From the sequence record AP025670.1: DNA of 64,000 nt. One strand, written 5' to 3'. The position numbers were made by a program, and so were the translations under genes. The DNA comes from a plasmid. This document shows, piece by piece, positions 16,497 through 55,202 of this stretch (position 1 is its first letter; every line of letters starts with the position of its first letter). Under the pieces are notes generated by a model. The model saw nothing but the letters and a program-made list of their open reading frames with translations, had not been told where the DNA came from and did no database searches.

Positions 16497-16860
16497 TTCT
16501 CTTGACTCCTTGAGTAAAAGGAGACAGAATCAAATTGCGAAGTTTGTAGACTGCCTCGAATTAAGGGTTATACCTGATTCGGGGCTTTCGTCTTTTTGGC
16601 TCGTATCAATGCTCGAACCAAAATGATTCAAGCACCCAAAACGATATTAGCAGATTATTATTAATTGCAATACTATTTATTATTAATAATATTTGTTTGT
16701 TTTTATGATATTTCTTTAAGTATTTTAATATAAATGGCTCATACTAACTTGAATTGAATAATATCAATTATATATTTAAATATTCTATGAAATCACCATA
16801 TATTAGTGGTGGGTATAATTTTATTTACACCCACATGTTATTAATACCTTTCAATAAACC

Positions 16861-17691
16861 TTAATAGCTACCTTTGTAGCAAGTAGAGATGAATTGTAAT
16901 TCTCCGTTATTAGATATTTTTGAGTGTAGCACATCAATGCTATATTTAATCATAAAATCTGAAATCTCTTTTGTACAAAAGCTATTCTTCCATTTAGATA
17001 TTCTTGATATGTTTTGTTCAAAAGCAAACGCATCAACATCTGCATTTTTAAGAGAGAGTAACTTTTTATCTGTGGTATCAAAATTTAGCATATAAGTATT
17101 AACCGGACTAGACATCGTTTGTGTAACACCAATATATTTAACATCCCACGCATTAGTTTTATTGAATGAATTGGTTATGTACTCATCTAGCCAGATGTTT
17201 ATCTTATCCATTTCATCCTTAGATGTTTCCTTCTTGTCAATAAAATCATTTCTACTAAATATATATGTTTTTAAGGTTTCTCCGTTAACAACATCTCTTA
17301 TAGTTAGCACATTGTTTGCCGTAGAGAAAAATATCTGTGGTTCAGACAGATCAGCACCATACCAACGAGCATTGGGTAAGTTTTCGTCAAAGAAACTTAG
17401 TCTGTTTGTTGACTCTTTTCTACACAGATATGAAAAGAGTTTACCATCTTGGCTTCTTATGTATCTAATTCTACTGATATTATTTGAAATTTCCGTCGAT
17501 TGCATTATATCTATATCACGATCATATATGGTAGATAATCCTGCTTTACAAATTTCTGATAGTGAAAATGACATTTGACTTTCAGCGGAAATCGCATTTT
17601 GGATATGTGTGATACTCAATGATAAGACTGCAAATAAAATTAATTTATTGGCTTTCACATTTTTTCCTTTATTTTTACTATAAATTAGCAC
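16861..17691 (-). CDS. secreted hypothetical protein (signal peptide, 276 aa)
   Basis: N-terminal signal-like segment KLILFAVLSLSITHIQNA. Confidence 0.4.
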   Translation of the reverse strand: MLIYSKNKGKNVKANKLILFAVLSLSITHIQNAISAESQMSFSLSEICKAGLSTIYDRDIDIMQSTEISNNISRIRYIRSQDGKLFSYLCRKESTNRLSFFDENLPNARWYGADLSEPQIFFSTANNVLTIRDVVNGETLKTYIFSRNDFIDKKETSKDEMDKINIWLDEYITNSFNKTNAWDVKYIGVTQTMSSPVNTYMLNFDTTDKKLLSLKNADVDAFAFEQNISRISKWKNSFCTKEISDFMIKYSIDVLHSKISNNGELQFISTCYKGSY

Positions 17692-18060
17692 TTATAGAAT
17701 TATAAAAATTTATAATTATAGCTACATGGTAGCTATTCAATTGATTCTGATATTACCAAAAAAAGGAAATCACTAATCAGTGTATTAAACCTACTTTCTA
17801 CCCACAAATTCATAATACAAGTTACATTATGGATTTTAATCATCAATAATGTGCAATATATCACCGAGTATTGTTATATTTGCAATAATATCTATGTTTT
17901 AACTTTTGGATGATAAATCCTTGTGTTACTCTTTACTCGGTTAAATATACGTTTAATGTAGTAACTTTTTTTATTTTATGATTTATGGTTAATGATGCTA
18001 TTTGATGCACCAGAATTCACCACAATTTTCACACCAATTTTCAGCACCAAGGAGGCACTG

Positions 18061-19017
18061 ATGGGAGAGTTAATTTTACGTGACACCGTAACAGATATTG
18101 TTGATGTAAATAACATGACGAAAAACACCAACAATCCAGCAACCAGCTACTTGCTACGGCTCCGTTCCAAACAAAGTCAAAAGACAATGCGATCCTGTCT
18201 AGTGTCAGTGGTGAAATTGTTTCGTGCTATGGACCCGTTTACTTTCGATTGGTCAATCATGGATCGAGATGCCGTTCAATTGGTACTTCAGAAATTAATA
18301 CTGGAGAAAAAGACCCCAAATAGTATCAACTTGATATTGAGTGCCATTAAAGGGGTGGCTGAAGAAGCCAGAGCATCACGAGTCATAGATAGTGATACAT
18401 ATCAGGATATTAGAAGCATACGCCGGATTCGTGGGAACCGTATTGGTCGAGGGCGTTCACTGAGTAGTAGTGAAATAACGCACATTTATCAGCATCTTGA
18501 TAGCATAAATACCGCAGTCTCGGTACGTGATGCAGCGATTGTATCATTAATGCTTGGCTGTGGTTTGCGCCGTGCTGAAGTCACTTTGTTGGATATGGAA
18601 GATATCAATTTTGATAATTACTCCATTAAAATCATGGGTAAAGGAAACAAAGAAAGAACTAACTTCATGCCAAGTGACACGCTCCGTCGTATTCGCTTAT
18701 GGATAGAAACTGTAAGAGGGGATCATACCGGTGCAGTTTTTACCCGCATACGTAAAAATGATGATGTAACTTGCGATAGAATAACAACCGATGGTTTACG
18801 GTATATTATTGATAAATTGGTGAAAGATTCAGACTCAGATTCATTTACACCGCATGATTGCCGACGAACCTATGCCACTAAGTTGTTAGAACTAGGTGAG
18901 GACCTACTTACTGTCAGAGAAGCTATGGGACACAGTAGTGTCGCTACTACACAGCGATATGATAAACGAGGTGTAACACGCTTAGAGGCTGCTGCACGTA
19001 ATCTGCAATATTATTAG
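18061..19017 (+). CDS. tyrosine site-specific recombinase/integrase (XerC/D-like fold)
   Basis: Catalytic signature …HDCRRTYAT… and …GHSSVATTQRYD…; AAGGAGG RBS before the ATG at 18061 (the ORF is listed from 17992). Confidence 0.8.
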   Translation: MGELILRDTVTDIVDVNNMTKNTNNPATSYLLRLRSKQSQKTMRSCLVSVVKLFRAMDPFTFDWSIMDRDAVQLVLQKLILEKKTPNSINLILSAIKGVAEEARASRVIDSDTYQDIRSIRRIRGNRIGRGRSLSSSEITHIYQHLDSINTAVSVRDAAIVSLMLGCGLRRAEVTLLDMEDINFDNYSIKIMGKGNKERTNFMPSDTLRRIRLWIETVRGDHTGAVFTRIRKNDDVTCDRITTDGLRYIIDKLVKDSDSDSFTPHDCRRTYATKLLELGEDLLTVREAMGHSSVATTQRYDKRGVTRLEAAARNLQYY

Positions 19018-19030
19018 AGATATAACACAA

Positions 19031-19870
19031 ATGAGATCACAATCGCATTTTGTAGAAACTGAAGCTATAAAGATAGTCCACAATCAGATACCCAGTAAAA
19101 ATTGGGTGTTACGTTCCATTGGTGAAAGAGATTACGGCTCAGATTTCATGATTGAGCTTTTTGATAATAAAGAATCAACTGGTGATTGTTTTTTTGTACA
19201 ATCCAAAGGCACTGAAAAAACATTTACAGAAGATGTAAAAATCAGCTTTCCTGTTAACACTATAAAATATGCAATGCTATTTAACGTACCATTTTTTTTG
19301 TTTTATACGTCTATCACTTCAAAGCAAACAAAATTTATTTGGTTACAAAAATATACTAACTTAGTGCTTAATGAAAAAAATTGGGAAGATAAAAAGTCAA
19401 TAACAATCTATTTTCCAGAAGAAAATGACCTCTCTAAAAATAGAGAAAAAATAATCAAATTACTTGCAAATAGCCGTGCAGTTAATGATTTTATATCATT
19501 TAAGCATACAATCGAAAATTTGAAATTTTGGGGTGAAATGGTCATATATAACAATGATTATTATCATGGCAGTAAATGCATAGAATTATGTCACAAAATC
19601 AATGACATGAAAAATGTAATTTTATATGCATCTGAACTATATGTTGATGATAGTTGCCCTTTTGAAATGAGAACTCAGTATCAGAAACTTAGAATTAATA
19701 AAATGATTTCCACATTTAATAAATTCATTAAATATAAAAAAACAACAAATAAAAAGATTAACTTTATTAAAAAACAATTTGAAATATTAGATTGCATTTG
19801 TAATGACATTATTTCTTCATCAGAATTAGAAAGATGGGGTTATGAGTCTGAAGCCTTAATTCCATTTTAA
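19031..19870 (+). CDS. DUF4365-like / PD-(D/E)xK nuclease-fold N-terminal domain protein (279 aa)
   Basis: …ETEAIKIV…NWVLRSIGERDYGSDFMIELF…GDCFFVQSKG… fits the D…D-x-(E)…(Q/E)xK restriction-endonuclease-like signature. Starts 14 bp after the integrase gene. Confidence 0.5.
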   Translation: MRSQSHFVETEAIKIVHNQIPSKNWVLRSIGERDYGSDFMIELFDNKESTGDCFFVQSKGTEKTFTEDVKISFPVNTIKYAMLFNVPFFLFYTSITSKQTKFIWLQKYTNLVLNEKNWEDKKSITIYFPEENDLSKNREKIIKLLANSRAVNDFISFKHTIENLKFWGEMVIYNNDYYHGSKCIELCHKINDMKNVILYASELYVDDSCPFEMRTQYQKLRINKMISTFNKFIKYKKTTNKKINFIKKQFEILDCICNDIISSSELERWGYESEALIPF

Positions 19871-19890
19871 TTTATTTTGAGATAATTATA

Positions 19891-20901
19891 ATGAGAAATT
19901 TAACCACATGGACTTGTTCCGAAATAACAAAGTTGATTGGGACTATTGACGAACCATTCTTCATTGAAAAAATATGCAAATTTACCGGACGTAGTGTAAA
20001 TGATGTCCTCTCTAAATTGTTGCACATGGGATTGTGTGAAATAAACTATAAGGATAATAAGATATCTACGGCTAGGAATACAAATTTAAACCATCTCATT
20101 CCTTATTCATCATTTATTCCTAAATTATTAGAACTTGGTTGGATATATGAGTTATTAAATAGGGAGGAATCTCTTAAAGCCCCCAAGTGGTGGGTAAATA
20201 ATGATCAGTTCCCTATAAGTAACACTATCGAATTGAATCGTAATGAAACAGTATGGGTTAATGAGGAAATTCATACAGTTATCTCCATGATACAAAACAA
20301 GATGAACCTAAGCTCAATCGCAAATAAAATACATAGAAATCAATCATCTATTACCGCAATGTTAATAGATCTTGGTATTTTAGAATGCATTGATAAACAA
20401 GAAATCTTTTTGTCTGAAGTTAATGAATTGAAACTTTCAAAGTATACATTTAATAATGCGCTTGTTCTTATTAATCATGGATGGGTTGTTACCAACAATA
20501 ATTTATCTGCGCCTAATTGGTGGCTTGAAAATAACAAGGATAATAAGAATGTTCATAATAGCCACTACGATGAAAGGAAAGAAATAACCGGTAATGATAG
20601 CAGACAATTGTATATGTTTATTAAATCAGAATTAGAGGGCATACTAAACACTATTCATGAAAATAAGCGTATCGAAGAATTGTCAGATGTAACGTATTTA
20701 GGTTATACACTTGCAGATTTAACGACCTACATTGGTATTACTTCAGTTAAGGTAGCAGGGCAGGTCACAAAGAACAATAAAACCCACATGAGCTATTTTA
20801 TGGATAAACCTTATAATATAAAGAAAATGTTGATTAACTTTGGTTGGAAAGTTTCAGATGATTCATTAGCAGCTCCTGAATGGTGGTCTAATGAAGAATA
20901 A
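19891..20901 (+). CDS. repeat protein with three HTH-like modules, each ending in GW…L(K/S/A)AP.WW
   Basis: Internal repeats …LGWIYELLNREESLKAPKWW…, …NHGWVVTNNNLSAPNWW…, …NFGWKVSDDSLAAPEWW…. Confidence 0.45.
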   Translation: MRNLTTWTCSEITKLIGTIDEPFFIEKICKFTGRSVNDVLSKLLHMGLCEINYKDNKISTARNTNLNHLIPYSSFIPKLLELGWIYELLNREESLKAPKWWVNNDQFPISNTIELNRNETVWVNEEIHTVISMIQNKMNLSSIANKIHRNQSSITAMLIDLGILECIDKQEIFLSEVNELKLSKYTFNNALVLINHGWVVTNNNLSAPNWWLENNKDNKNVHNSHYDERKEITGNDSRQLYMFIKSELEGILNTIHENKRIEELSDVTYLGYTLADLTTYIGITSVKVAGQVTKNNKTHMSYFMDKPYNIKKMLINFGWKVSDDSLAAPEWWSNEE

Positions 20902-21313
20902 ATACATCTCTTTCATTCAAATTATTTTTTTTACCGTTGCTTGTGTATATCCAGCGTATTTATTAATACGCAGAAAAAACATAATTGATATTTCCATGTT
21001 AATATTTATTGTATTAATTGCAGTAATTGGAGATTTTATTGAGTGCATAACATTAATTGAATTATCTAAGATGTTAGCATCATTCTTTCTTATTGCAATT
21101 TATGTGAATTGCTACCGCAGCTATTTTAAGTACTCTAAAAGTAATATTGATTTAATTAGTTTTAAAGCAGTAGATAATAAGATGGGGTATCTTGTTTTTT
21201 CCAGTGAAACTATATGTTATTTCTTGCCTTTAAAAATAAGTAGCCACTTTAATATGTTATGGTTTTATGGATATTTGAAAGCCATAACCATGCACCTTCA
21301 AAATAGAAAGTGA
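20891..21313 (+). CDS. small multi-pass membrane protein (140 aa), overlapping the previous gene
   Basis: Three to four hydrophobic helices; start overlaps the upstream stop. Confidence 0.4.
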   Translation: MKNKYISFIQIIFFTVACVYPAYLLIRRKNIIDISMLIFIVLIAVIGDFIECITLIELSKMLASFFLIAIYVNCYRSYFKYSKSNIDLISFKAVDNKMGYLVFSSETICYFLPLKISSHFNMLWFYGYLKAITMHLQNRK

Positions 21314-21393
21314 TACTTTTAAGACTGTTTACTAAGAAAAAAGATACCATATAACGGGTACATTGCCTTTTTAATTTCTGAAGGCTGAAGCTC

Positions 21394-22143
21394 ATGAACT
21401 TCATAAGTACCCTTATTCTTGCACTTATCCTACGAATTCTTTACCTCATATATCGAAAACGTAAGCCTAGTTTTTATACTGTTAGCTTGGTAATAATATC
21501 AGTTATTGTGTGGTCCGTTAAATCCTACCTATTGGACTATTACATTATCCCAACATCCTCTATGGCACCGACATTAAAAGCCGGTGATCTCATTTTTGCA
21601 AAGCCGGTTGACACGCAAAAAGAGCAATTGATGCGTGGAGATATCGTGATTTTCCGAGCTCCTGCATTCCCTTCATTCATTTATGTAAAACGCATAATCG
21701 GATTGGCTGGCGATACTATCACTTATGCCGATGATAAGTCAGTCCAGATCAACGGAAGGATGATCGGGCAGCTAAACCATCATAATGACCATACGAGTAC
21801 CTATCAGGCGCTTCAGGAACGTAATGCGCAACAATATGAGTACGTCATTGATAACCGTAAACCATTCGTTAAGCCAATTTATACACAATGGGTAATCCCT
21901 GATGGATATGTTTTTGTTCTTGGCGATAACAGGGATCACTCATGGGATTCACGGTTTTTTGAAAATGCAGTTGGAACTCCAAGGCATTTGCGAGGGCTTG
22001 TTAAAAAGGAACTTTTGATAAGCCGGTATTTAGCCACGGCTTTTACACTTGAGTTTATGAAAAGCGATTTTGATATAGGGGAGAATAGCTTAAAAGTAAT
22101 TTCTGAAGCTCAAACGGCAGAGGGGAATGATGGGGATAAATAG
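21394..22143 (+). CDS. signal peptidase I (S26 family; LepB/TrhF-like)
   Basis: N-terminal TM helix, catalytic-Ser box …SSMAPTLKAGDLIF… and the conserved …GDNRDHSWDSRFF… box. Confidence 0.8.
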   Translation: MNFISTLILALILRILYLIYRKRKPSFYTVSLVIISVIVWSVKSYLLDYYIIPTSSMAPTLKAGDLIFAKPVDTQKEQLMRGDIVIFRAPAFPSFIYVKRIIGLAGDTITYADDKSVQINGRMIGQLNHHNDHTSTYQALQERNAQQYEYVIDNRKPFVKPIYTQWVIPDGYVFVLGDNRDHSWDSRFFENAVGTPRHLRGLVKKELLISRYLATAFTLEFMKSDFDIGENSLKVISEAQTAEGNDGDK

Positions 22144-22480
22144 AAGCTGTATCGCATTAGTTTGCTTTTTCTTGTCATCTTGTGGTTCTACCACAGGGGC
22201 GATCACTACACACGAGCATCTTGTGACGCAAGCCACACAAGATAAGCATGTCAGTTCAGGTGGCTTCGACAGAGTAGCTGATACCTATGTACTGGCAAGA
22301 GAGATTACTGGTCTTGAATCCAACGAAATAAAGCAACTCTATGAGGTGAAGGGGAGTGACAACACATTAATAAAAATTGATATGGCATCTATACCATGCT
22401 CGATATTGCTTAAAAAGAACACAAGTCAAAGTAGTGAGATTTGGCTTATAACTGATATGGGTTGCAATGAATATTTATAA
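22127..22480 (+). CDS. small lipoprotein (lipobox LSSC)
   Basis: Signal peptide ending …FFLSSCGS; overlaps the upstream gene. Confidence 0.5.
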   Translation: MMGINRSCIALVCFFLSSCGSTTGAITTHEHLVTQATQDKHVSSGGFDRVADTYVLAREITGLESNEIKQLYEVKGSDNTLIKIDMASIPCSILLKKNTSQSSEIWLITDMGCNEYL

Positions 22481-23036
22481 AATCTCAGTAATCAGCTCCC
22501 TTTTATTTTCTTCTTTGTCATACAGCAAACCTATTTTTATAGGAGATTCACTTACCTATGAGATAGCTAAAGGGTACAGCACAATCCAAGCTGTTGATGC
22601 TCGATACAAAGTAGGTAGCGGATTATCCACAAAGAATATCCTTGATTGGCAGAGATACGCAGAGCAATTCAGTTTTGAAGAATACGATACCGTTTATGTG
22701 ATTCTCGGTACTAACGACCATGTTCAAATATCAGAAAAAGAAAAGTACACCTCTAAAGTTCGGCATTTTATCCAAACCATAAAAGCCAGAAACCAAAATG
22801 TAATCTGGTTACTTCCTCCAACCCTTAAAGACACCGCCAAAAACAGACTATTAGATAACACTCGGCAAGCCATAATGACGGCTTCGCAGATAGAGGGGAT
22901 CACCACCGTAGATACACGAACGGTTCTTGGTGAAACATACAAGGATGTCATAGATGGGACAACAGTTCGCACAAAGGATGGAATACATATCACTCCAAAC
23001 GGAGCCTTACTTACCGTGACACAGCTACTATTTTAG
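22467..23036 (+). CDS. secreted SGNH/GDSL hydrolase
   Basis: Signal peptide, GDSL block …IFIGDSLTYE… and C-terminal …DGIHITPNG… (DxxH). Confidence 0.65.
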   Translation: MNIYKISVISSLLFSSLSYSKPIFIGDSLTYEIAKGYSTIQAVDARYKVGSGLSTKNILDWQRYAEQFSFEEYDTVYVILGTNDHVQISEKEKYTSKVRHFIQTIKARNQNVIWLLPPTLKDTAKNRLLDNTRQAIMTASQIEGITTVDTRTVLGETYKDVIDGTTVRTKDGIHITPNGALLTVTQLLF

Positions 23037-23053
23037 TAAATTGGAATGTTGTA

Positions 23054-23989
23054 ATGAGAAGAAAGCGTAGATTTAAGAAACGAAATCCCTATGTAACTAA
23101 TATGAATATTGCATTTATATTCTATATGACCACTCTGGTATTTCTTAGATTTGATTCTATTGCGAGAGTTTTAACTTTAGTAATACCTTTATTTGCTGTT
23201 TATATATTGTCACCTAGCAGCAAAATATTGAGGTTACACAAGAGAAAGAAACCTGAATGGGCTTCAGTGGGAATCAAAAGAAATGCCCCTCTATTAAACC
23301 CTCAAGTTGCATTAGTGATAATTGCTGTTACCACAATAACTGTATTTTTTCTTCGTTATGACCATGTAATAACAACGAAAATCATACAACTGATATGGGG
23401 AGATATAAAAACAGCATATGCTGATATTTTCGGGAAAAGCAGTGCGAATAAATTATTCTCTCTGAGGAATATCCCAGTTTGTACATATTATACATTCCAT
23501 ATATTACGTTCATGCGTTGCATTTCTGCTCGTGGCTTATTCAGCAAGTGTCTATTTTCGTTATAAACAACAAACTATGTTTAAAAAGGTACTTTTTAATG
23601 CCACCTATCATGAAGATGCATTGCAATTTATCCGAGAATTATCATGGCGAGAATTTGAGGAATTTATAAGAGAGTTATTCAACAGCCTTGGGTACAGAGC
23701 TACTGTCACTAATTATGGTCCAGATGGTGGGAAAGATATCATTATGGAACGTGATGGAATCAAAGTTTTCGCTCAATGCAAACACTGGAAATCTGACAAT
23801 GTAGGTGTTGCTATCGCCCGTGAAATGGTTGGTGTACTAGAAGCAGAACCCGAATTTAAGCATGTATTTCTAGTCACATCAGGTAAGTTTTCTAACGATG
23901 CAGTTCTATACAGTCACAGAACATCTGACCGTCTGACACTCATGGACGGAAAAATGATAGCCGATAAATTATTGCTGTTAAGAAAGTAA
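23054..23989 (+). CDS. membrane-anchored Mrr-cat (restriction-endonuclease-like, PD-(D/E)xK) protein
   Basis: Four N-terminal TM helices, then …FEEFIRELFNSLGY…YGPDGGKDIIMERDGIKVFAQCKHW…, which fits the Mrr catalytic-domain pattern (DGG-D … QCK). Confidence 0.6.
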   Translation: MRRKRRFKKRNPYVTNMNIAFIFYMTTLVFLRFDSIARVLTLVIPLFAVYILSPSSKILRLHKRKKPEWASVGIKRNAPLLNPQVALVIIAVTTITVFFLRYDHVITTKIIQLIWGDIKTAYADIFGKSSANKLFSLRNIPVCTYYTFHILRSCVAFLLVAYSASVYFRYKQQTMFKKVLFNATYHEDALQFIRELSWREFEEFIRELFNSLGYRATVTNYGPDGGKDIIMERDGIKVFAQCKHWKSDNVGVAIAREMVGVLEAEPEFKHVFLVTSGKFSNDAVLYSHRTSDRLTLMDGKMIADKLLLLRK

Positions 23990-24078
23990 TCCGCTTTTAG
24001 AACCTTTGCGCCCTATTCGTAGGGCGTAATTCTATAACATATATCAGATACACGTAACACAGATTATTGAGGCTCAAA

Positions 24079-25041
24079 ATGACGGATGTTTCTTCCAATG
24101 CAAAAAAAAATGAAAGTAAAAAAGGACTTGGTTTTCTTCTGAATAAAAAATCCATGATTGCAGTTGCAGTTGCAGCAGGTGCAATAGCAGTATTTGTTTT
24201 ACTCAAACCAGCAACAGACACGACAGAAATTGATGTTAATTATTATAGTGACGTTGAAACCTCTATTCCTGTTTTTAACAATCCCAAAGAGGCAGAACCA
24301 GAATCGAACAGTGCCGAGAACGTAACTAAAACCGATTCTCCGGCATCAGAGGTTAAATCCGACTCTGTTACAGGAGATGTTGCTAAGACGCTCTCAGAAG
24401 CAGAACAGGAGCATTCTGACGTAACAGAAACACAGAATCCATCAGATAGCGAACAAAGCATTAATGGCATGCTTGAGCATGTTAGCGAAGCTGCTACTTC
24501 AGTAGTGGAACACACTCAGGCATTAAGTACAAACTTTACAGGTCAACCACCTGCACCGGCAGCTCAGGAGCTCAGTGATGTGTATTACAGCAATCAGGCT
24601 CCAACACAGCAACAAGACTTTAAAAACGTATTTGATGCAGCATTGGAAGAAAGAAACAAACGCCTTGAAAATGACCAAAACCTCGACTATGTAGGGAAGC
24701 AATTAACGATCCCATACGCGCCAAATTCACAAACTAAAGTCTATCTCTACCGTAATTTTGCAGTGAAAATTTTCCTACCTGCACAATCCGAAGCCGTTAA
24801 AGAGCTCAATTACTTCATCAATGGCTCAGACCATGACGATCATTTCGACATCAAATTATTACCAAATAACATTTTGCTCTTATCGAAAAAGCCAAGTTCT
24901 GAAGTGTGGGGCGGCACAGACTTATTCATCACTCATGGTAAACAAAATTATACATTTATATTACTTAGTGCGAAAAACCCTGATGAAAGAACTGATTCTA
25001 TTCATTATGAAAAAGTAAGCGCAAACACAACCAATAAGTGA
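24079..25041 (+). CDS. acidic Ser/Thr/Glu-rich single-pass membrane protein with a conserved C-terminal beta-rich domain
   Basis: One TM helix after a basic N-terminus, a long low-complexity acidic linker and a structured C-terminal about 130 aa. Confidence 0.4.
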   Translation: MTDVSSNAKKNESKKGLGFLLNKKSMIAVAVAAGAIAVFVLLKPATDTTEIDVNYYSDVETSIPVFNNPKEAEPESNSAENVTKTDSPASEVKSDSVTGDVAKTLSEAEQEHSDVTETQNPSDSEQSINGMLEHVSEAATSVVEHTQALSTNFTGQPPAPAAQELSDVYYSNQAPTQQQDFKNVFDAALEERNKRLENDQNLDYVGKQLTIPYAPNSQTKVYLYRNFAVKIFLPAQSEAVKELNYFINGSDHDDHFDIKLLPNNILLLSKKPSSEVWGGTDLFITHGKQNYTFILLSAKNPDERTDSIHYEKVSANTTNK

Positions 25042-25098
25042 TCGTTAACTCTCCAAAACTACCTTACAGCCCCTTTTTGGGGCTTTTTTGGATTCAAA

Positions 25099-25656
25099 AT
25101 GGAAAAATACACGAGTCTGAGAACAATAGCTGACGATATTCAGATGTACCCATATTCATATCTATTATGCCGACAATTATTAAAAAAGGGATACATCGAG
25201 GGCGAGGCTGTGATTGGTATCTATAAGCAAGAACTGGTCCACACTCCGGAGACAGATTTAGCTTACACAAACAGCATTTTGCAATACTCATGGATCGAGA
25301 CAAAGGCTCATACCGTCATAGACCCTTTAATTGATTTTCGCGACGGAAACCGAGAAATTAACCTAATCGAGAGAGACAAAACACCAAATTACCATGCAGG
25401 CGTAAATCCCTTGAAAATTACGAAGGAATTACTTCCAGAACATCGTTGCTCTGATGAAGTGTTTACACTAATGAGAGGGGCTGAATCAGAGGCTATGAGG
25501 CGAATTTTAGGTTTAGAACAAAACCCCAATGGGATCACAATGACTGAAGCGGCTTACATAGCAAATTATCATACGTGTGATTACTTAGGATATGATAGGA
25601 TTATTTTGAATTTTTTTATTAAACACAAATTAACACCAATCATAATAAACGAATAG
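25099..25656 (+). CDS. hypothetical protein (185 aa)
   Basis: ORF only. Confidence 0.35.
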   Translation: MEKYTSLRTIADDIQMYPYSYLLCRQLLKKGYIEGEAVIGIYKQELVHTPETDLAYTNSILQYSWIETKAHTVIDPLIDFRDGNREINLIERDKTPNYHAGVNPLKITKELLPEHRCSDEVFTLMRGAESEAMRRILGLEQNPNGITMTEAAYIANYHTCDYLGYDRIILNFFIKHKLTPIIINE

Positions 25657-25704
25657 TCGCTGCTTTATTCAAGAGTGAAACATAAACCATATAAGAGATA
25701 AATT

Positions 25705-26019
25705 ATGCCAGATTTAGAATATTACTTACTTTCCCCTGCTTCACACAAAGGTGTAGAAAACGAACATGCAAACTCAGGTAGAATGTTAGACCGATATTTG
25801 AATACTAATGGTCGCTGGAGTGCATTTCCACCCAAGAAGAATATTAGCTTATTATATTGGAGCTCAAGAGAGGAAATATTAAAAGCCGCAGAAATAGCAA
25901 TCAATTCAGGGCGAGATGTGCATATTTGCAAAATATCAACAAATGGAAAAGTAAACCAAGATAGAATGATTAATTACAACGAAAATCATTTACCCTGCCT
26001 AACAGGATATATAAAGTAA
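25705..26019 (+). CDS. hypothetical protein (104 aa)
   Basis: ORF only. Confidence 0.3.
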   Translation: MPDLEYYLLSPASHKGVENEHANSGRMLDRYLNTNGRWSAFPPKKNISLLYWSSREEILKAAEIAINSGRDVHICKISTNGKVNQDRMINYNENHLPCLTGYIK

Positions 26020-40661: not shown

Positions 40662-41481
40662 GGCACTGTTGCAAAGTTAGCGATGAGGCAGCCTTTTGTC
40701 TTATTCAAAGGCCTTACATTTCAAAAACTCTGCTTACCAGGCGCATTTCGCCCAGGGGATCACCATAATAAAATGCTGAGGCCTGGCCTTTGCGTAGTGC
40801 ACGCATCACCTCAATACCTTTGATGGTGGCGTAAGCCGTCTTCATGGATTTAAATCCCAGCGTGGCGCCGATTATCCGTTTCAGTTTGCCATGATCGCAT
40901 TCAATCACGTTGTTCCGGTACTTAATCTGTCGGTGTTCAACGTCAGACGGGCACCGGCCTTCGCGTTTGAGCAGAGCAAGCGCGCGACCATAGGCGGGCG
41001 CTTTATCCGTGTTGATGAATCGCGGGATCTGCCACTTCTTCACGTTGTTGAGGATTTTACCCAGAAACCGGTATGCAGCTTTGCTGTTACGACGGGAGGA
41101 GAGATAAAAATCGACAGTGCGGCCCCGGCTGTCGACGGCCCGGTACAGATACGCCCAGCGGCCATTGACCTTCACGTAGGTTTCATCCATGTGCCACGGG
41201 CAAAGATCGGAAGGGTTACGCCAGTACCAGCGCAGCCGTTTTTCCATTTCAGGCGCATAACGCTGAACCCAGCGGTAAATCGTGGAGTGATCGACATTCA
41301 CTCCGCGTTCAGCCAGCATCTCCTGCAGCTCACGGTAACTGATGCCGTATTTGCAGTACCAGCGTACGGCCCACAGAATGATGTCACGCTGAAAATGCCG
41401 GCCTTTGAATGGGTTCATGTGCAGCTCCATCAGCAAAAGGGGATGATAAGTTTATCACCACCGACTATTTGCAACAGTGCC
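40662..41481 (-). mobile_element. IS26: IS26, second copy, inverted relative to the first
   Basis: Identical 820 bp with inverted repeats at 40662-40675 and 41468-41481; the flanking 8-mers differ (no target-site duplication). Confidence 0.95.
40714..41418 (-). CDS. tnpA: IS26 transposase Tnp26
   Basis: Protein identical to the first copy. Confidence 0.95.
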   Translation of the reverse strand: MNPFKGRHFQRDIILWAVRWYCKYGISYRELQEMLAERGVNVDHSTIYRWVQRYAPEMEKRLRWYWRNPSDLCPWHMDETYVKVNGRWAYLYRAVDSRGRTVDFYLSSRRNSKAAYRFLGKILNNVKKWQIPRFINTDKAPAYGRALALLKREGRCPSDVEHRQIKYRNNVIECDHGKLKRIIGATLGFKSMKTAYATIKGIEVMRALRKGQASAFYYGDPLGEMRLVSRVFEM

Positions 41482-44594
<3,113 letters not shown>

Positions 44595-44659
44595 CAGAAA
44601 GAGGGCGGTACATTCGGTGAATGTGCCGCCCTTTTTCTGGTGCTGGGGGAATACCCCCG

Positions 44660-45082
44660 CTAGTCGTACTGCTCTTCCATCCAGGCCTCGACGATGAGCT
44701 GGGCGGAGACGCCATCCACGCTGCCCTTGTCCAGGGCCTTGTAGCCGCCACGCTCGAACAGGCGGGCGCGTGCGTCCGTGGTGGTGAGCCGTTCGTCCTT
44801 GAATTCCACTGGCTTGCCGAAGCGGCCGTGCAGGCGGTTGCCAAACTTGCGGGCCCGCACCGTGATCTCCTGATCCGTGCCGTCCATGTTCAGCGGCAAT
44901 CCCACCACCAGCAGGTCCGGCTGCCACTCCTTGAGCAATTTCTCTATCTCGTCCCAGTTGGGGATGCCGTCGTTGGCCTTGAGGGAACGAAGGGGGCGGG
45001 CGCTGCCGGTGATCTCCTGGCCGATGGCGACACCTATGCTCTTGGTGCCGTAATCAAAGCCCATGATGCTGCGTGATGACAT
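44660..45082 (-). CDS. yqgF: YqgF/RuvC-like Holliday-junction resolvase (Aeromonas chromosomal passenger)
   Basis: …[16 protein letters not shown]… DxGxKxIGxA motif. Confidence 0.8.
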
Positions 45083-45141
45083 GGGGTTCCTTACAACGGA
45101 ATGAGTAAAAGGGGCCCTTGGGGCCCGCTTGGTACAAGGCT

Positions 45142-45297
45142 AGCTATGCCCCACCTGGCTGGAGAGGTGCAGGGGATTGACGCCTATGCTGATGGCGACA
45201 ATGGCCTGCGGCCAGCGTTGGCGGTGCATCAAGGTATCAAACCGCATCAGCTATGCCCCACCTGGCTGGAGAGATGCAGGGGATTGACGCCTATGCT
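45142..45297. repeat. 49-bp direct repeat (AGCTATGCCCCACCTGGCTGGAGAG[G/A]TGCAGGGGATTGACGCCTATGCT) at 45142-45190 and 45249-45297
   Basis: Two copies 107 bp apart with one mismatch. The second copy is the 3' end of yqgE and the first lies in the yqgE-yqgF spacer. Confidence 0.8.
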
Positions 45298-45801
45298 CGC
45301 GGCGGCCTGTTGCCAGCGCAGGTGGATGGGGGTGTCGAAGACCAGTTTGGGATTGGGCGGGATCACCAGCCAGGCGCCATCCGCCAGCTCCTGCTCCAGC
45401 TGCCCTGCGCTCCAGCCGGCGTAGCCGAGGGCCACCAGCCAGTGGTCCGGGGCTTGGTCGGTGCCCAGGGTCTCGAGGATGTCCTTGGAGGTGGTGACCA
45501 TCATCTCGTCGCTCACCTGCAAGGTGGAGTTGAAGCCCGGGCGGAAGCTGTGCAGCACGAAGCCGCGATCCCCGTGCACCGGGCCGCCCTGCAGCACCGG
45601 CTGCTTCATCTCGGCCGTATCGGGGGGGCTCAGCTTGAGCTTGGTCAGCATGGTGTCCAGGGACATGTCGACCGGAATGTTGACCACCAGGCCCATGGCG
45701 CCTTCGCTGCTGTGCTCGCACAGGTAGACCAGGGAGCGCTGGAAATAGGCGTCCGTGAGGCTCGGCATGGCGAGCAGGAAGTGATTTTGCAATGTCTGCA
45801 T
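45247..45801 (-). CDS. yqgE: YqgE/AlgH-family (UPF0301) protein
   Basis: MQTLQNHFLLAMPSLTDAYFQRSLVYLCEH… parallels E. coli YqgE. The longer listed ORF start is upstream out-of-frame read-through. Confidence 0.75.
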   Translation of the reverse strand: MQTLQNHFLLAMPSLTDAYFQRSLVYLCEHSSEGAMGLVVNIPVDMSLDTMLTKLKLSPPDTAEMKQPVLQGGPVHGDRGFVLHSFRPGFNSTLQVSDEMMVTTSKDILETLGTDQAPDHWLVALGYAGWSAGQLEQELADGAWLVIPPNPKLVFDTPIHLRWQQAAASIGVNPLHLSSQVGHS

Positions 45802-46042
45802 AGAGTGCATAGGACTAATAGTGCAAAGGTAGTTGGGGTGATTATGGCAGTTAGGGGCGGCAGGCAAAACCGCTTTTTGCGACCGGGGAAGGCGGTGGAT
45901 CGCCTCGGCGCAAGGGGATGAACGGGGCCTTTGAAGACCCCGGTCGGTTTTATTTACCCAGTCGGCCAAACTATCAGGTCAAGTCTGCTTTTATTATTTT
46001 TAAGCGTGCATAATAAGCCCTACACAAATTGGGAGATATATC

Positions 46043-46390
46043 ATGAAAGGCTGGCTTTTTCTTGTTATCGCAATAGTTGGCGAAGTAATCGCAACATCCG
46101 CATTAAAATCTAGCGAGGGCTTTACTAAGCTTGCCCCTTCCGCCGTTGTCATAATCGGTTATGGCATCGCATTTTATTTTCTTTCTCTGGTTCTGAAATC
46201 CATCCCTGTCGGTGTTGCTTATGCAGTCTGGTCGGGACTCGGCGTCGTCATAATTACAGCCATTGCCTGGTTGCTTCATGGGCAAAAGCTTGATGCGTGG
46301 GGCTTTGTAGGTATGGGGCTCATAATTGCTGCCTTTTTGCTCGCCCGATCCCCATCGTGGAAGTCGCTGCGGAGGCCGACGCCATGGTGA
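46043..46390 (+). CDS. qacEdelta1: QacEdelta1 truncated SMR efflux protein (3'-conserved segment)
   Basis: [41 protein letters not shown]… 115 aa; overlaps the sul1 start. Confidence 0.95.
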
Positions 46391-47223
46391 CGGTGTTCGG
46401 CATTCTGAATCTCACCGAGGACTCCTTCTTCGATGAGAGCCGGCGGCTAGACCCCGCCGGCGCTGTCACCGCGGCGATCGAAATGCTGCGAGTCGGATCA
46501 GACGTCGTGGATGTCGGACCGGCCGCCAGCCATCCGGACGCGAGGCCTGTATCGCCGGCCGATGAGATCAGACGTATTGCGCCGCTCTTAGACGCCCTGT
46601 CCGATCAGATGCACCGTGTTTCAATCGACAGCTTCCAACCGGAAACCCAGCGCTATGCGCTCAAGCGCGGCGTGGGCTACCTGAACGATATCCAAGGATT
46701 TCCTGACCCTGCGCTCTATCCCGATATTGCTGAGGCGGACTGCAGGCTGGTGGTTATGCACTCAGCGCAGCGGGATGGCATCGCCACCCGCACCGGTCAC
46801 CTTCGACCCGAAGACGCGCTCGACGAGATTGTGCGGTTCTTCGAGGCGCGGGTTTCCGCCTTGCGACGGAGCGGGGTCGCTGCCGACCGGCTCATCCTCG
46901 ATCCGGGGATGGGATTTTTCTTGAGCCCCGCACCGGAAACATCGCTGCACGTGCTGTCGAACCTTCAAAAGCTGAAGTCGGCGTTGGGGCTTCCGCTATT
47001 GGTCTCGGTGTCGCGGAAATCCTTCTTGGGCGCCACCGTTGGCCTTCCTGTAAAGGATCTGGGTCCAGCGAGCCTTGCGGCGGAACTTCACGCGATCGGC
47101 AATGGCGCTGACTACGTCCGCACCCACGCGCCTGGAGATCTGCGAAGCGCAATCACCTTCTCGGAAACCCTCGCGAAATTTCGCAGTCGCGACGCCAGAG
47201 ACCGAGGGTTAGATCATGCCTAG
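46384..47223 (+). CDS. sul1: sulfonamide-resistant dihydropteroate synthase Sul1
   Basis: [28 protein letters not shown]… 279 aa; ATG overlaps the qacEdelta1 end as in the 3'-CS. Confidence 0.95.
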
Positions 47224-47350
47224 CATTCACCTTCCGGCCGCCCGCTAGCGGACCCTGGTCAGGTTCCGCGAAGGTGGGCGCAGACATGCTGGGCTCGTCA
47301 GGATCAAACTGCACTATGAGGCGGCGGTTCATACCGCGCCAGGGGAGCGA

Positions 47351-47851
47351 ATGGACAGCGAGGAGCCTCCGAACGTTCGGGTCGCCTGCTCGGGTGATAT
47401 CGACGAGGTTGTGCGGCTGATGCACGACGCTGCGGCGTGGATGTCCGCCAAGGGAACGCCCGCCTGGGACGTCGCGCGGATCGACCGGACATTCGCGGAG
47501 ACCTTCGTCCTGAGATCCGAGCTCCTAGTCGCGAGTTGCAGCGACGGCATCGTCGGCTGTTGCACCTTGTCGGCCGAGGATCCCGAGTTCTGGCCCGACG
47601 CCCTCAAGGGGGAGGCCGCATATCTGCACAAGCTCGCGGTGCGACGGACACATGCGGGCCGGGGTGTCAGCTCCGCGCTGATCGAGGCTTGCCGCCATGC
47701 CGCGCGAACGCAGGGGTGCGCCAAGCTGCGGCTCGACTGCCACCCGAACCTGCGTGGCCTATACGAGCGGCTCGGATTCACCCACGTCGACACTTTCAAT
47801 CCCGGCTGGGATCCAACCTTCATCGCAGAACGCCTAGAACTCGAAATCTAA
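47351..47851 (+). CDS. orf5 GNAT-family acetyltransferase of the class 1 integron 3'-CS
   Basis: 166-aa GNAT-like ORF in the canonical position after sul1. Confidence 0.8.
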   Translation: MDSEEPPNVRVACSGDIDEVVRLMHDAAAWMSAKGTPAWDVARIDRTFAETFVLRSELLVASCSDGIVGCCTLSAEDPEFWPDALKGEAAYLHKLAVRRTHAGRGVSSALIEACRHAARTQGCAKLRLDCHPNLRGLYERLGFTHVDTFNPGWDPTFIAERLELEI

Positions 47852-48385
47852 CGTCCGTTCGGGCATCGAGGTCCATGTCGGGGTGGGACGGGCCCGTGGC
47901 TTCAAGATCACTTGCAGTCCGACCGCGATGTCTTGGTTGCGCGAGAGGTTGTCGATATCCTCCACTTCCATCATCAACCCTGGATAATGCCGCCGCCGTC
48001 ATCGCCGCCGACGCCCGTGCCGGGCTTTTCGGGCCTGTCAGGCTTGCTCGGCCTTCAGCCTGCCTGGGCGAGATCTCCGGCGGACGGATTAACGGCGGAG
48101 CTTCGCCGCCTTTCGTGCGTGTGAAGGCCGAAGATAGTTCTCTCAAAAACATCCGTTTATGAGAGATACCAAAGCCGACAGTCTGCCGAAGGTTGAAGGT
48201 CTCTCAAAACTGCCTCTCGCTTCCGATCTCTCACCGATCTACGTTTCTAAGTGTTTTGAGAGGAGAACAGCATGTTGGTGGGGTACGCCAGGGTTTCGAC
48301 ACGTGATCAAACCCACGCTGTTGATTTGCACCCAAATTTGACCCGGGATTTGCATTGAATTTTGACCCACCCCTTGTTGTCAGAA

Positions 48386-49171
48386 TTATGTCTCGATTTT
48401 CAGTTTGCGGGTCTGTTTTTCCTCCTGCTTATTCTGAGTTGAACTGTGTTTGAAGCGGTAACTTTCATTGCCGGTTTCCAGGATGTGGCAGTGGTGGGTT
48501 AGTCGGTCCAACAACGCTGTTGTCATCTTTTCATCGCCAAACACTCGGCTCCATTCCGAGAAGCTCAAGTTGGTGGTCAGTATCACGCTGGTTTTTTCGT
48601 ACAGCTTTGAGAGCAGGTGAAACAGCAGTGCCCCACCGGTTTGGCTAAAAGGCAAATATCCCAGCTCATCCAGAATCACCAAATCGGCATACAACAGACG
48701 GTTTGCGATTTGTCCCTGACGCCCAGATGATTTCTCTTGCTCCAGTGCATTGACCAAATCCACGGTGGAGAAGAAACGCACCCGTCGGTTCAAGTGCATC
48801 ACTGCTTGTGTACCAATGGCTGTGGCCAGGTGAGTCTTGCCTGTGCCTGGCCCACCAATCAGCACCACGTTCTGGGCTTGTTCCATGAAGTCGCACCGGT
48901 GCAATTGTTTGACCGTGGCCTCATTAACCAGGCTTTGACTGAAGTCAAAGCCCACCAAGTCCCGATACACGGGGAACTTGGCCACCCGCAATTGATAGTT
49001 CACCGAACGTACTTCACGCTCTGCCACTTCAGCTTTAATCAAGCTGTCCAGCATGGGCAAGGCTTGATTAAATGCTGGTGAATTCTGATTGCCCAACTCC
49101 TCAATGGCGTGTGCCATGCCAAAGAGTTTCAAGGATTTGAGGATTCTCACATGGCCTTCATGCTGCATCAT
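48386..49171 (-). CDS. istB: IS21-family helper ATPase IstB
   Basis: Walker [12 protein letters not shown] and Walker B ILDELGY. Confidence 0.85.
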
Positions 49172-50681
49172 GGGCTCTCCTTAAACTGTCATAGCGGTTC
49201 ACGTTGGCCTGTGGTTCCAATGTCAGCCTTAACCCCTTGGGAATTGGAATCGGTTTGGGTGGAGGTTCTTCGGTCAAACGTCCCAACAGATTAAGCACAT
49301 GCTCCTTCGATGGCTTGCCACACTCCAATGCCAATTCCACAGCACTGAGTACCGCACCTTCATCGTGGTGCAATACAAGGGCCAGAATTTCCACCATGTC
49401 ACGGTCACCGCCGGGGCGTTGCAGCAAGATGGATTGAAGCTTCTTGAACGCGGGTGGCAATTCAGCAAATGGCGCACCATTGCGCAACGCCCCAGGTTTC
49501 TTCTGAAGCACAGACAAGTAATGGTGCCAGTCGTATTGTGTGTGGCCACGCCGAGCGTGGCCACTGCCAAACAATCTTGGATGCTCGGCAATGTGTTGGC
49601 CTTCGGCAGCCATCACCAGCTTGTCTGCATAAATCCGAAGGCTGATGGCCCTGTTGGCGTAACTGGCAGGAACGCTGTAGCGATTGCCCTCGTGGTGAAC
49701 AAGGCAGGTTGAAGTGACTCGCTTGGTTTGCTCCACGAATGCATCAAAGGCATTGGGTAGCGCCATCAACTCGCCTTGTTCATCGGCAAAGGCCTCTTGC
49801 ACGGTTTGGTCCAATTCGGGGTGGCGCAGCTCAGACCACAGCGCTTTGCAGCGATGCTCAAGCCACACATTCAAATCAGCAAGGCTTTGAAAGTCTGGTG
49901 CCCCTTGCCACAGGCGTTGGCGGGAATCCTGCACGTTCTTCTCAATCTGGCCTTTCTCCCAACCCGATGCTGGATTACAGAACTGCGCATCAAACAGGTA
50001 GTGGCTGACCATGGCAGTGAACCGCTGATTGACCCTGCGCTCTTTGCCACGCCCCACCGAATCCACAGCGGTCTTCATGTTGTCGTAGATGCCGCGCTTG
50101 GGAATGCCACCGAAGATTTGAAAGGCATGCCAGTGGGCATCAAACAGCATTTCATGTTTTTGCTGGTAGTAAGCCCGAAGCACAAAGGCCCGGCTGTGGG
50201 CCAACTTAAACTGGGCAATCTGAAGTTTGACCTGTTTGCCCGCTATGCGGGCAAAGTCCTCACTCCAATCGAATTGGAAGGCTTCGCCACAAGCAAAGCG
50301 CAAGGGGATGAAACAACCCTTGCCCGAGGTTTGCGCCTTGAACTGTTCGGAATCTTTCCACTGTCGGGCAAAGGCACACACTCGGTCATAAGACCCGGTA
50401 AAGCCCAAAGCGACCAAATCCCGGTACATGCTGCGCAGGTTTCTGCGCAGCTTCTTTGTCTTTTTGTGCTCGGTGGAGAGCCACTGCCTTAACTTGGGCT
50501 CAAAAGGACTTAACTTGCCAACGCTGTCTCGCGCTGGGTACTGCGGTTCAACCACCTTGCTTTGCAAATACTTGCGAACGGTGTTCCTGGACAGGCCGCT
50601 TCGTCGGGCTATTTCCCGAATCGACGCACCATCGCGAAAATGCCAGCGTCGAATTGCGCTCAATATCGCCACGTTTATCAC
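49158..50681 (-). CDS. istA: IS21-family transposase IstA
   Basis: HTH N-terminus and DDE core; overlaps the istB start. Confidence 0.85.
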
Positions 50682-50782
50682 TCCTTGATTTCTCCCGCCA
50701 TATCCAGACGGGAAACAGTGTCATACGTGGGTCAAATTTCGACGCAAATCTTTACCCTAAGTGGGTCAATTTTAGATGCAAC

Positions 50783-53325: not shown

Positions 53326-53441
53326 GCTCACCTCGCTTTGGTGCACACGAGTATTGAGCATAGTCGAGATTGGTGCAGATCACTTCTGATATTGAACTGT
53401 CAGGAGCTGGCTGCACAACAGCCATTACGCCCAATCAACTG

Positions 53442-53466
53442 GTGCAGTCGTCTTCTGAAAATGACA
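53442..53466. repeat. IRt, the 25-bp terminal inverted repeat of the class 1 integron / Tn402 tni module
   Basis: GTGCAGTCGTCTTCTGAAAATGACA, about 115 bp beyond the tniA start. Confidence 0.8.
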
Positions 53467-53506
53467 TCGTTTGCACATGGCATCTGACATCAAGTTAGGG
53501 TATGCC

Positions 53507-54496: not shown

Positions 54497-54729
54497 GATC
54501 GACCTCTGAAGGCCCGCAGCAGCCGCGTCACAGACAGGACAAACAAGCCGGTCAGCGTGAGGGCTGCAATACCCCAGTGCTCGCCGATGAACGCGCCGGC
54601 CGTCGTGCCGGCCAGCACAATGGCGAGAATCGGCAAATGACAGGGACAGGTGAGCACCGCCAGCGCACCCCACAGGTAGCCGGTGAACGGCTTGTGTGTC
54701 TCGGCCGGCATGCGCTCGGGGCTGTTCAT
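54493..54729 (-). CDS. merE: MerE mercury transporter
   Basis: 78 aa, [39 protein letters not shown]…. Confidence 0.9.
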
Positions 54730-55091: not shown

Positions 55092-55202
55092 CGAACACCT
55101 CCTTTTGGTCGGTTCACGGCAATGCATATACCGTTTCGCCGAGTTCAATCCGCGCGCTGCGAATCCGATGCCGGTGCCGTAGAACATTGGGTCGATATCC
55201 GA

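Follow-up and report, generated by a model that had tools for sequence, protein, structure and literature searches.

A DUF4365 nuclease-type gene with a cassette-like C-terminal domain, set among backbone genes of a MOBH plasmid

We analysed a 64,000-nucleotide window of plasmid DNA (record AP025670.1, positions counted from its first letter), in which three tightly packed open reading frames (ORFs), here ORF1, ORF2 and ORF3, follow a tyrosine recombinase gene. The host is a pPrY2001-type MOBH/MPF_F conjugative plasmid, of the family that includes NDM-1 and cfr plasmids. A first-pass annotation, made from the sequence, had proposed that the three genes form a recombinase-linked system of nuclease, repetitive sensor and membrane effector. 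We favour, with somewhat better than even confidence, a different reading: the locus holds one accessory gene, ORF1, a candidate single-gene nuclease defence, placed among genes of the MOBH plasmid backbone, and it is not a three-component system. The features on which the argument turns are the following.

19031-19870, + strand: ORF1, a stand-alone 279-residue protein of the DUF4365 (PD-(D/E)xK) nuclease type with a helical C-terminal domain (Pfam, family alignment, AlphaFold2 (AF2) model with Foldseek)
19031-19454, + strand: N-terminal nuclease-type domain of ORF1, residues 1 to about 141 (DxGxD…QxK motif; allele and DNA comparisons)
19455-19855, + strand: C-terminal helical domain of ORF1, a cassette-like, allele-specific segment (break in DNA similarity; all-helical model)
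19891-20901, + strand: ORF2, 336 residues in three tandem modules, each a tri-helical helix-turn-helix (HTH), a beta-hairpin and a GW…L-x-x-P-x-WW stretch
19903-20193, + strand: ORF2 repeat 1, about residues 5-101, with GW at 83-84 and APKWW at 97-101 (sequence, homologues, AF2)
20245-20523, + strand: ORF2 repeat 2, about residues 119-211, with GW at 197-198 and APNWW at 207-211 (part matched by phrog_323 and multi-HTH proteins)
20596-20886, + strand: ORF2 repeat 3, about residues 236-332, with GW at 318-319 and APEWW at 328-332 (HTH part modelled at low confidence)
20891-21313, + strand: ORF3, a 140-residue small membrane protein (hydropathy, conservation, substitution ratios), overlapping the end of ORF2 by 11 nucleotides (nt) and lying 80 nt upstream of the signal peptidase gene lepB

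Relatives of ORF1 occur without the other two genes

Relatives of ORF1 were found by a motif-guided scan of one genome per species, which gave 21 loci in Gamma-, Beta- and Alphaproteobacteria, Bacteroidota, Verrucomicrobiota and Desulfobacterota. At 18 of these, ORF2, ORF3 and this integrase are all missing within 8 kb; the other three, which have them, represent the same plasmid backbone in Proteus and Providencia. Across the genome loci and the plasmid collection the trio was found only in pPrY2001-like plasmids and in one syntenic Photorhabdus plasmid contig. The system of nuclease, sensor and membrane effector put forward in the first-pass annotation would have the genes occurring together in other genomes, and this distribution does not support it. 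No conserved partner gene was found beside the ORF1 relatives elsewhere; because intact relatives stand alone, they must be self-regulated. Judged by its sequences, the ORF1 family is a widespread, unnamed family of stand-alone proteins of about 280 residues.

The surroundings of these relatives have the character of defence islands. Immediate neighbours include a BsuBI/PstI restriction endonuclease, HerA, a Schlafen-like helicase, PIN_12 and HEPN_Apea, and when ten of the larger neighbours were compared with PADLOC, seven matched its models: PDC-S06, Lamassu LmuB, dGTPase, a type IIG restriction-modification enzyme, Hachiman HamB and HerA at E<=1e-100, and a PDC-S41/Nhi-like protein at 1e-16 to 1e-19. 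The link to anti-phage islands drawn in the first-pass annotation therefore holds for ORF1, whose relatives lie among known defence genes, and not for ORF2 or ORF3, neither of which matched PADLOC at E<=0.1. Among viral contigs, relatives of ORF1 appeared at only two loci and the ORF2 family was absent, so neither is a phage gene family. A search of E. coli genomes with ORF1 DNA returned plasmid alleles only.

DUF4365 was also seen as the N-terminus of far longer proteins of 662 and 674 residues, in a Nitrospirales metagenome-assembled genome (MAG; locus L039, 7869-9857) and a Myxococcales MAG (L040, 7941-9965), respectively, so this head is also fused to other, larger C-terminal modules.

The arrangement of the genes in the window is what gives a joint defence system of nuclease effector, repeat sensor and membrane effector its appeal. 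All three genes lie on the + strand directly 3' of the recombinase gene, which ends at 19017, and are separated from it and from each other by 13 nt (recombinase to ORF1), 20 nt (ORF1 to ORF2) and an 11-nt overlap (ORF2 to ORF3); the close, co-directional packing was thus correctly described at first pass, while the gaps given there (14, 21 and −10) were each off by one. The pPrY2001-like plasmids examined share the gene order, as does the Photorhabdus relative at 40-56% amino acid identity, and all three genes have diverged faster than lepB, GDSL and Mrr beside them. We nevertheless regard such a system as improbable. Besides the want of co-occurrence outside one backbone, homologues of ORF2 on other MOBH plasmids come without ORF1 and the integrase, ORF1 is frameshifted, truncated or interrupted by an insertion sequence (IS) in several lineages in which ORF2 stays intact and under purifying selection, and the PADLOC comparison gave nothing for ORF2 or ORF3. 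The co-directional array, moreover, spans 17992-26019, and past the trio takes in an S26 signal peptidase, a lipoprotein-like ORF, a GDSL/DUF459 esterase, an Mrr_cat endonuclease and three further ORFs, with no terminator-like site on the + strand before 25068 or 26033. Because it goes on in one direction for about 5 kb without a terminator, the trio is not a delimited operon, and 'three genes' is an arbitrary cut.

ORF1 is a DUF4365 protein

The assignment of ORF1 as a DUF4365 protein of the PD-(D/E)xK type is well supported by sequence comparison. ORF1 matches Pfam DUF4365 (PF14280) over residues 10-141 with 58.2 bits (E 1.2e-15) at a cut-off of 24.3, and the DxGxD…QxK motif is intact, with D34, G36, D38, Q57 and K59 lying in ERDYGSD…FVQSKG. 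In the family alignment (17 relatives, several phyla), E32, R33, D34, Y35, G36, D38, Q57, K59 and G60 are invariant, and all 17 family members match DUF4365. The N-terminal domain named at first pass is thereby confirmed. The C-terminal half had been called lysine-rich and unrecognisable, a description that fails on both counts: lysine makes up 11% of each half of the protein, whose gene is AT-rich, and the half aligns over its full length with relatives from several phyla. These are typically 271-300 residues long, with one Xenorhabdus member of 329 residues (a first-start ORF call).

ORF1 may be thought of as a nuclease by analogy with its better-studied kin. DUF4365 is described in PMC10810196 as the DNase effector of short prokaryotic Argonaute (short-pAgo) systems, and in the DUF4365 toxin EAT16 three of the four conserved residues of DxGxD…QxK are individually needed for toxicity in E. 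coli (PMC11297309). In PADLOC, ORF1 has domain-level matches only, the best being to Aga_REase (Argonaute-associated restriction endonuclease; 8.6e-7, residues 3-90 of ORF1, in a 429-position model).

The AF2 model of ORF1 has a mean predicted local distance difference test (pLDDT) score of 66.5, which falls below 50 over residues 1-51 and rises to about 90 in the helical C-terminal half. Foldseek placed SPARDA DREN-APAZ chains on top (probability 1.00, E 2e-3 to 2e-2), with archaeal Hjc resolvases next, at E 0.05-0.4. With a strong Pfam match and motif and weak structure searches, the PD-(D/E)xK assignment is well backed by sequence and loosely by the model.

The C-terminal domain of ORF1 differs between otherwise similar plasmids

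Compared with sister plasmids, protein identity is 94-99% for lepB, GDSL and Mrr, 86-99% for the integrase (int), 87-94% for ORF2 and 75-92% for ORF3, and only 39-50% for ORF1. The divergence is concentrated in one segment. In three independent comparisons, nucleotide similarity ends at 19452-19454 and returns at 19856-19859, with no detectable similarity between and with flanks at 79-96% DNA identity. The break coincides with the C-terminal domain and leaves the last four ORF1 codons conserved. At the protein level, the N-terminal domain is 59-69% identical between plasmid alleles, and the C-terminal domain 20-25% (window allele against two other plasmid classes). Our sample contained three C-terminal classes on plasmids, which are 21-47% identical in backbones that are 95-99% identical, and a fourth in Photorhabdus; across all classes, Photorhabdus included, C-terminal identity is 21-51%. 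The domain has no Pfam match and no meaningful match in the PDB, and was modelled by AF2 as all-helical.

ORF1 is also often lost. One plasmid carries a mosaic gene with a frameshift at the junction (residues 1-55 are 96% identical to the window allele, the remainder 40%), the Photorhabdus relative is frameshifted, and plasmids that lack int at this position and have resistance genes upstream have lost the 5' end of ORF1, in one of them with an IS30 interruption as well. These amount to at least three independent disruptions in the sample. ORF2 is intact in every case, and so is ORF3 except on the Photorhabdus contig, where it is split. Plasmids with a disrupted ORF1 include some still typed conjugative. 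Deep allele classes in a single domain of a nuclease gene that is dispensable and often lost are what would be expected of a determinant of immunity or competition.

Synonymous divergence is saturated in ORF1, 0.3-0.9 in int, 0.1-0.3 in ORF2, 0.07-0.5 in ORF3 and 0.07-0.10 in lepB. Because the values for int, ORF2 and ORF3 are also raised over that of lepB, we conclude that there is a stretch of about 4.5 kb whose history, centred on ORF1, is older or recombinant.

The same observations could be read in terms of a toxin, serving plasmid addiction or competition between plasmids or strains, with ORF2 or another neighbour as repressor or antidote and with allele classes that represent incompatibility or immunity types instead of anti-phage specificities. 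The toxicity of EAT16 in E. coli depends on the same motif, the locus lies in a maintenance region near MazEF, Hok and ParFG, deep allele classes in near-identical backbones fit frequency-dependent selection, and frequent inactivation of ORF1 fits a costly toxin. This is the alternative to which we give most weight, and we still consider it unlikely: ORF1 relatives elsewhere have no conserved partner gene; ORF2 is 87-94% identical across all three ORF1 classes and so does not co-vary with them; and ORF2 occurs without ORF1, just as the self-regulated relatives of ORF1 occur without ORF2.

ORF2 belongs to a protein family of MOBH plasmids

ORF2 is distributed quite differently. A word-indexed search returned 14 clusters, all from this plasmid family apart from one Photorhabdus protein (51% identity), and when 1.84 billion representatives were searched exhaustively with a profile, no more than five clusters reached E<=1e-30. 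Searching plasmids with tblastn added 131 further records, encoding proteins of 385-434 residues that are 20-24% identical to ORF2 and are carried by large MOBH plasmids of Citrobacter, Klebsiella and Enterobacter, and also of Providencia, Proteus and Moellerella. On these sequences, the ORF2 family is confined to MOBH plasmids of Enterobacterales. It is an uncharacterised plasmid protein family with no characterised member.

No integrase or DUF4365 gene lies beside the distant homologues on other MOBH plasmids, and the proposal that ORF2 acts as the sensor of a nuclease system is left unsupported. What lies beside them are genes for a small, weakly transglutaminase-like protein and for a transmembrane (TM) peptide, along with a TelA-like gene. 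On Citrobacter and Providencia MOBH plasmids (L010, 8478-8876; L011, 8407-8826), the distant homologue is always found behind a 132-139-residue protein with a weak transglutaminase-core match and a GHYWCE stretch, and is followed by a single-TM peptide of 62-63 residues. The transglutaminase-like protein, the ORF2 homologue and the TM peptide may form a trio that those plasmids conserve and that has nothing to do with DUF4365.

The three HTH-like repeats with their GW pairs, as first described, stand, but the L-x-AP-x-WW motif said to be invariant needs amending, since the alanine varies: in homologues at 20-24% identity, G-W…L-x-x-P-x-W-W is invariant in all three repeats and A is not. In the AF2 model (pLDDT 65 overall, about 80 over repeats 1 and 2), a repeat consists of three helices, a beta-hairpin, a helix and a second hairpin with GW…PxWW. 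The window protein matched nothing in Pfam near any cut-off, and sequence searches against solved structures gave nothing meaningful. The phrog_323 family, a 'transcriptional regulator', matches residues 120-185 at 3e-8, and a Citrobacter homologue reaches 27.3 bits with Myb_DNA-binding, as a summed score only. Weaker matches from the exhaustive search cover only about the first 50 residues of a repeat, in proteins built of several Myb, GcrA, sigma-70-region-4 or HTH_38 modules.

The first 45 or so residues of each ORF2 repeat thus match multi-HTH proteins (Myb/SANT, GcrA, sigma-70 region 4) weakly but consistently, whereas the beta-hairpin with its invariant GW…L-x-x-P-x-WW and the fixed number of three repeats set ORF2 apart, being found only in the MOBH-plasmid family. 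ORF2 is under purifying selection. From the repeats, the HTH matches and the distribution, we take it to be a triple-HTH backbone protein specific to MOBH plasmids, one that, to go by sequence and model, probably binds DNA.

ORF3 and the lepB-GDSL-Mrr block

ORF3, described at first pass as a small membrane protein, is one by hydropathy, with about three TM segments in its first 75 residues and then a 65-residue tail. None of the RefSeq gene tables that we examined lists it. The 140-residue frame is nevertheless intact in all six plasmid alleles examined, tblastn found near-full-length matches at 75-100% identity in 65 plasmid records, and the ratio of non-synonymous to synonymous divergence (dN/dS) is 0.23-0.25 at a synonymous divergence (dS) of 0.47-0.51, indicating purifying selection; on these grounds ORF3 is a real gene. 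The Photorhabdus relative has 40% amino acid identity. Together with ORF2, ORF3 belongs to the backbone genes of MOBH plasmids.

Downstream of ORF3 lies a block of genes (21394..23989) that is 96-99% identical across pPrY2001-like plasmids; for its first three genes, at 21394-23036, conservation is put at 94-99%:

21394-22143, + strand: S26 signal peptidase (lepB), 249 residues (Pfam)
22127-22480, + strand: small lipoprotein-like ORF, 117 residues
22467-23036, + strand: GDSL/DUF459 esterase (Pfam)
23054-23989, + strand: TM-anchored Mrr_cat endonuclease, 311 residues (Pfam, 5.4e-23; PADLOC candidate PDC-S02, 1.6e-12)

An equivalent block, running from a TM protein through lepB to Mrr, is found in IncT and other MOBH plasmids, where the closing Mrr homologue has 26% identity (E 1e-24) and a TM protein of 139-144 residues lies directly upstream of the equivalent lepB and overlaps it. 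ORF3 shares position, size and topology with the IncT protein. We dropped homology between the two, as neither BLASTP (E 0.97, collinear) nor hhalign (probability 1%) was significant; since homology is not demonstrable, the link is positional only. The Mrr protein has about four N-terminal TM segments fused to its C-terminal Mrr_cat domain, an architecture similar to that of the Epona anti-phage cassette (Mrr_cat with a holin-like TM domain). The tra genes and operons lie elsewhere on the plasmid and include a small signal peptidase of their own (171 residues) between traC and trbC; with that separate enzyme in the tra operon, pilin processing is not the task of the lepB block (21394-23036).

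In the related SXT/R391 and IncA/IncC elements, the Eex proteins sit in the inner membrane and have some 140 residues. ORF3 might in the same way be an entry-exclusion protein of the Eex/TraS type, with ORF2 as a regulator of conjugation, both acting in the control of transfer. Its 140 residues, with N-terminal TM segments and a soluble tail, would suit that role, as would its allele groups (100, 92 and 75% identity), which are more divergent than the adjoining lepB. We rate this least of the alternatives, and as very improbable, given that eex adjoins traG in SXT and IncC elements while ORF3 is far from traG, and that the homology to the IncT TM protein in the same position is not significant.

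The recombinase and the plasmid context

18061-19017, + strand: Xer-like tyrosine recombinase, the plasmid 'site-specific integrase' (Pfam Phage_integrase, 5.1e-30)

The recombinase ORF opens at 17992, and an ATG at 18061 follows a perfect AAGGAGG at 18049-18055; this ATG is probably the start, to judge from the sequence, giving a product of 318 residues. RefSeq annotation of sister plasmids gives 317 residues, in agreement with this, and pIB_NDM_1's own annotation is shorter, at 262. The protein matches the NCBIfam XerC, XerD and XerA models, in all cases below the cut-offs; because its scores fall short of the XerC and XerD equivalog cut-offs, it is Xer-like yet neither XerC nor XerD.

An imperfect palindrome of 29 bp, ACATTATGGAT-N7-ATCAATAATGT, with a layout like that of an Xer core site, lies upstream of the integrase at 17824-17852. 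It occurs only in plasmids that have the adjacent segment with a 276-residue ORF, and we rejected it as the core site of the recombinase, because it is missing from half of the sister plasmids that keep int. A reading of the region as an integration site at a tRNA gene was rejected as well: there are no tRNA genes within the window, and the integrase lies in the plasmid backbone and not at the edge of an island.

ORF1 follows the recombinase by 13-15 nt throughout the pPrY2001-like plasmid family, and archaeal Hjc resolvases come after SPARDA in the Foldseek results. One might therefore suppose that ORF1 is a structure-specific, Hjc-like nuclease that aids the adjacent recombinase in multimer resolution or other site-specific recombination. 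Tyrosine recombinases, however, resolve their own Holliday intermediates. Only about two of the 18 unrelated ORF1-relative loci have a tyrosine recombinase within 8 kb; plasmids still typed conjugative can do without ORF1, and some of them lack int at this position too; and a C-terminal domain that is swapped between near-identical plasmids (21-47% identity) would not be expected of a housekeeping resolution factor. We therefore think it decidedly improbable that ORF1 serves the recombinase, which would most simply be the plasmid's own site-specific enzyme, acting for example in multimer resolution.

The 3.6 kb around the trio is 100% identical in plasmids of Proteus mirabilis (pIB_NDM_1), Providencia rettgeri, Proteus penneri and Morganella morganii, and matches at lower identity 69 more plasmids of Morganellaceae and E. 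coli. The majority of the matching plasmids are typed conjugative, and the nearest records carry a MOBH relaxase, MPF_F and rep_cluster_1506. In the literature on pPrY2001-like plasmids, the backbone is described as replication, transfer and maintenance modules only, with no mention of the trio. ParF/ParG-type partition genes, MazEF and hok lie upstream of the recombinase and ORF1.

The segment from hok to the integrase (16717-17886), which in the window includes a 276-residue ORF on the minus strand (16861-17691), holds unrelated small ORFs in other plasmid lineages, and in some plasmids a Tn7-like TnsA/TnsB module or resistance genes (dfrA1, lnu(F)). Because different modules fill this position in different plasmids, the segment is an insertion hot spot. 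Further along, GC content rises from about 0.37 to 0.55-0.65 at 41000-59000, presumably marking an acquired resistance region.

Comparison with known systems

The closest experimentally validated analogue of ORF1 is, by its architecture, Divona, a DUF4365-containing cassette of the Vibrio cholerae chromosomal integron with anti-phage activity; when moved to the first integron position, it gives protection against a vibriophage, and in E. coli Divona is often found near integrases (bioRxiv 10.1101/2024.07.02.601686). Both proteins are small, join an N-terminal DUF4365 to an unrelated C-terminal domain and lie on mobile or variable DNA. The C-terminal part of Divona is described as crr6 (PF08847). 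None of the 17 family members matched PF08847 at E<=1, although the original crr6 assignment may rest on more sensitive profile methods; judged by crr6, ORF1 was not placed with Divona, to whose family it may still belong. Our motif-based genome scan did not pick up a V. cholerae relative of ORF1.

SPARDA, whose DREN domain is a DUF4365 domain, ranks first for ORF1 both in the structural comparison with the model and among the PADLOC domain matches (Aga_REase). It is described in PMC12205087 as a non-specific nuclease that is inactive until assembly is triggered. ORF1 differs in having no Argonaute gene nearby and no APAZ domain, in a C-terminal half that is an unrelated helical bundle, and in standing alone in unrelated genomes. 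The adjacent short Argonaute and fused APAZ by which short-pAgo systems are recognized are missing here, where the neighbours are the integrase, ORF2, ORF3 and lepB. EAT16, a toxin associated with an extracellular contractile injection system (eCIS) of Photorhabdus (PMC11297309), carries an N-terminal DUF4365 with the same DxGxD…QxK motif as ORF1. EAT16 is secreted cargo of the injection system, whereas the ORF1 locus has no eCIS genes, and the likeness rests on the N-terminal domain. By these analogies, ORF1 is related in kind to Divona, to the SPARDA DREN effector and to EAT16, and is most probably a self-contained nuclease module.

A proposed role for ORF1

We propose that ORF1 is a self-contained, single-gene nuclease module for defence or against invaders. 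Its N-terminal DUF4365 domain would be a DNA-degrading effector, like SPARDA DREN, the eCIS toxin EAT16 and the one-gene Divona, and the C-terminal helical domain would hold the nuclease off until a trigger is sensed, probably through control of oligomerization. Plasmids would exchange the latter domain as a cassette, which is what diversifying pressure by triggers or inhibitors should produce. ORF2, with three Myb/GcrA-like HTH modules and a tryptophan-rich hairpin, would bind DNA and most likely regulate or organize plasmid DNA. ORF3 would be a small inner-membrane protein leading into the signal peptidase, GDSL esterase and Mrr block, and probably a partner of the peptidase block.

Several points tell against this proposal. 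The AF2 models of ORF1 and ORF2 are mediocre (mean pLDDT 65-66.5), and the weak stretch of ORF1, residues 1-51, contains DxGxD. The Foldseek E-values for ORF1 are weak, at best 2e-3 with none <=1e-3; sequence and family-profile searches with ORF1 against solved structures found no solved nuclease, the sole profile match being to a designed helical bundle; and no PADLOC model covers ORF1 beyond the domain-level matches. The crr6 domain of Divona went undetected in all 17 family members, and the association of ORF1 relatives with defence islands comes from a small sample of about 15 loci. The raised synonymous divergence of int, ORF2 and ORF3 gives a separate history to the whole 4.5-kb stretch and not to ORF1 alone. 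Finally, the order int-ORF1-ORF2-ORF3 and its tight spacing never vary in pPrY2001-like plasmids that have the genes, and ORF2 overlaps ORF3; there may be a functional link that is specific to this lineage. Each of the four alternatives considered above, for its part, conflicts with the distribution data.

We offer a bolder version of the proposal only tentatively, as something rather less probable than its opposite. The DUF4365 proteins of about 280 residues with helical tails would then be an unnamed, phylum-spanning, single-protein immune nuclease, whose tail is a trigger-specific sensor subject to exchange; three or more specificities would be held under balancing selection on NDM-carrying pPrY2001-type plasmids; and ORF2 would represent a new class of DNA-binding protein, found only on MOBH plasmids, in which a GW…PxWW hairpin caps each of three Myb-like HTH modules.

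Significance

The locus reveals no new multi-component defence architecture, and its novelty is modest: a candidate variant of nuclease defence and a family of uncharacterised proteins on plasmids. ORF2 and the lepB-GDSL-Mrr block, both uncharacterised, are conserved as parts of the backbone in MOBH plasmids (pPrY2001-like, IncT and relatives), and knowing their role would help to explain how these plasmids are maintained or transferred. If ORF1 is an autonomous nuclease defence, it would be a small system of one gene whose sensor domain is modular by nature, and the precise boundaries of its cassette make domain swaps straightforward. The NDM-1 and cfr plasmids found in Proteus, Providencia and Morganella, which are of clinical importance, would then carry a diversifying immunity locus, which may shape the phages and plasmids that their hosts accept.

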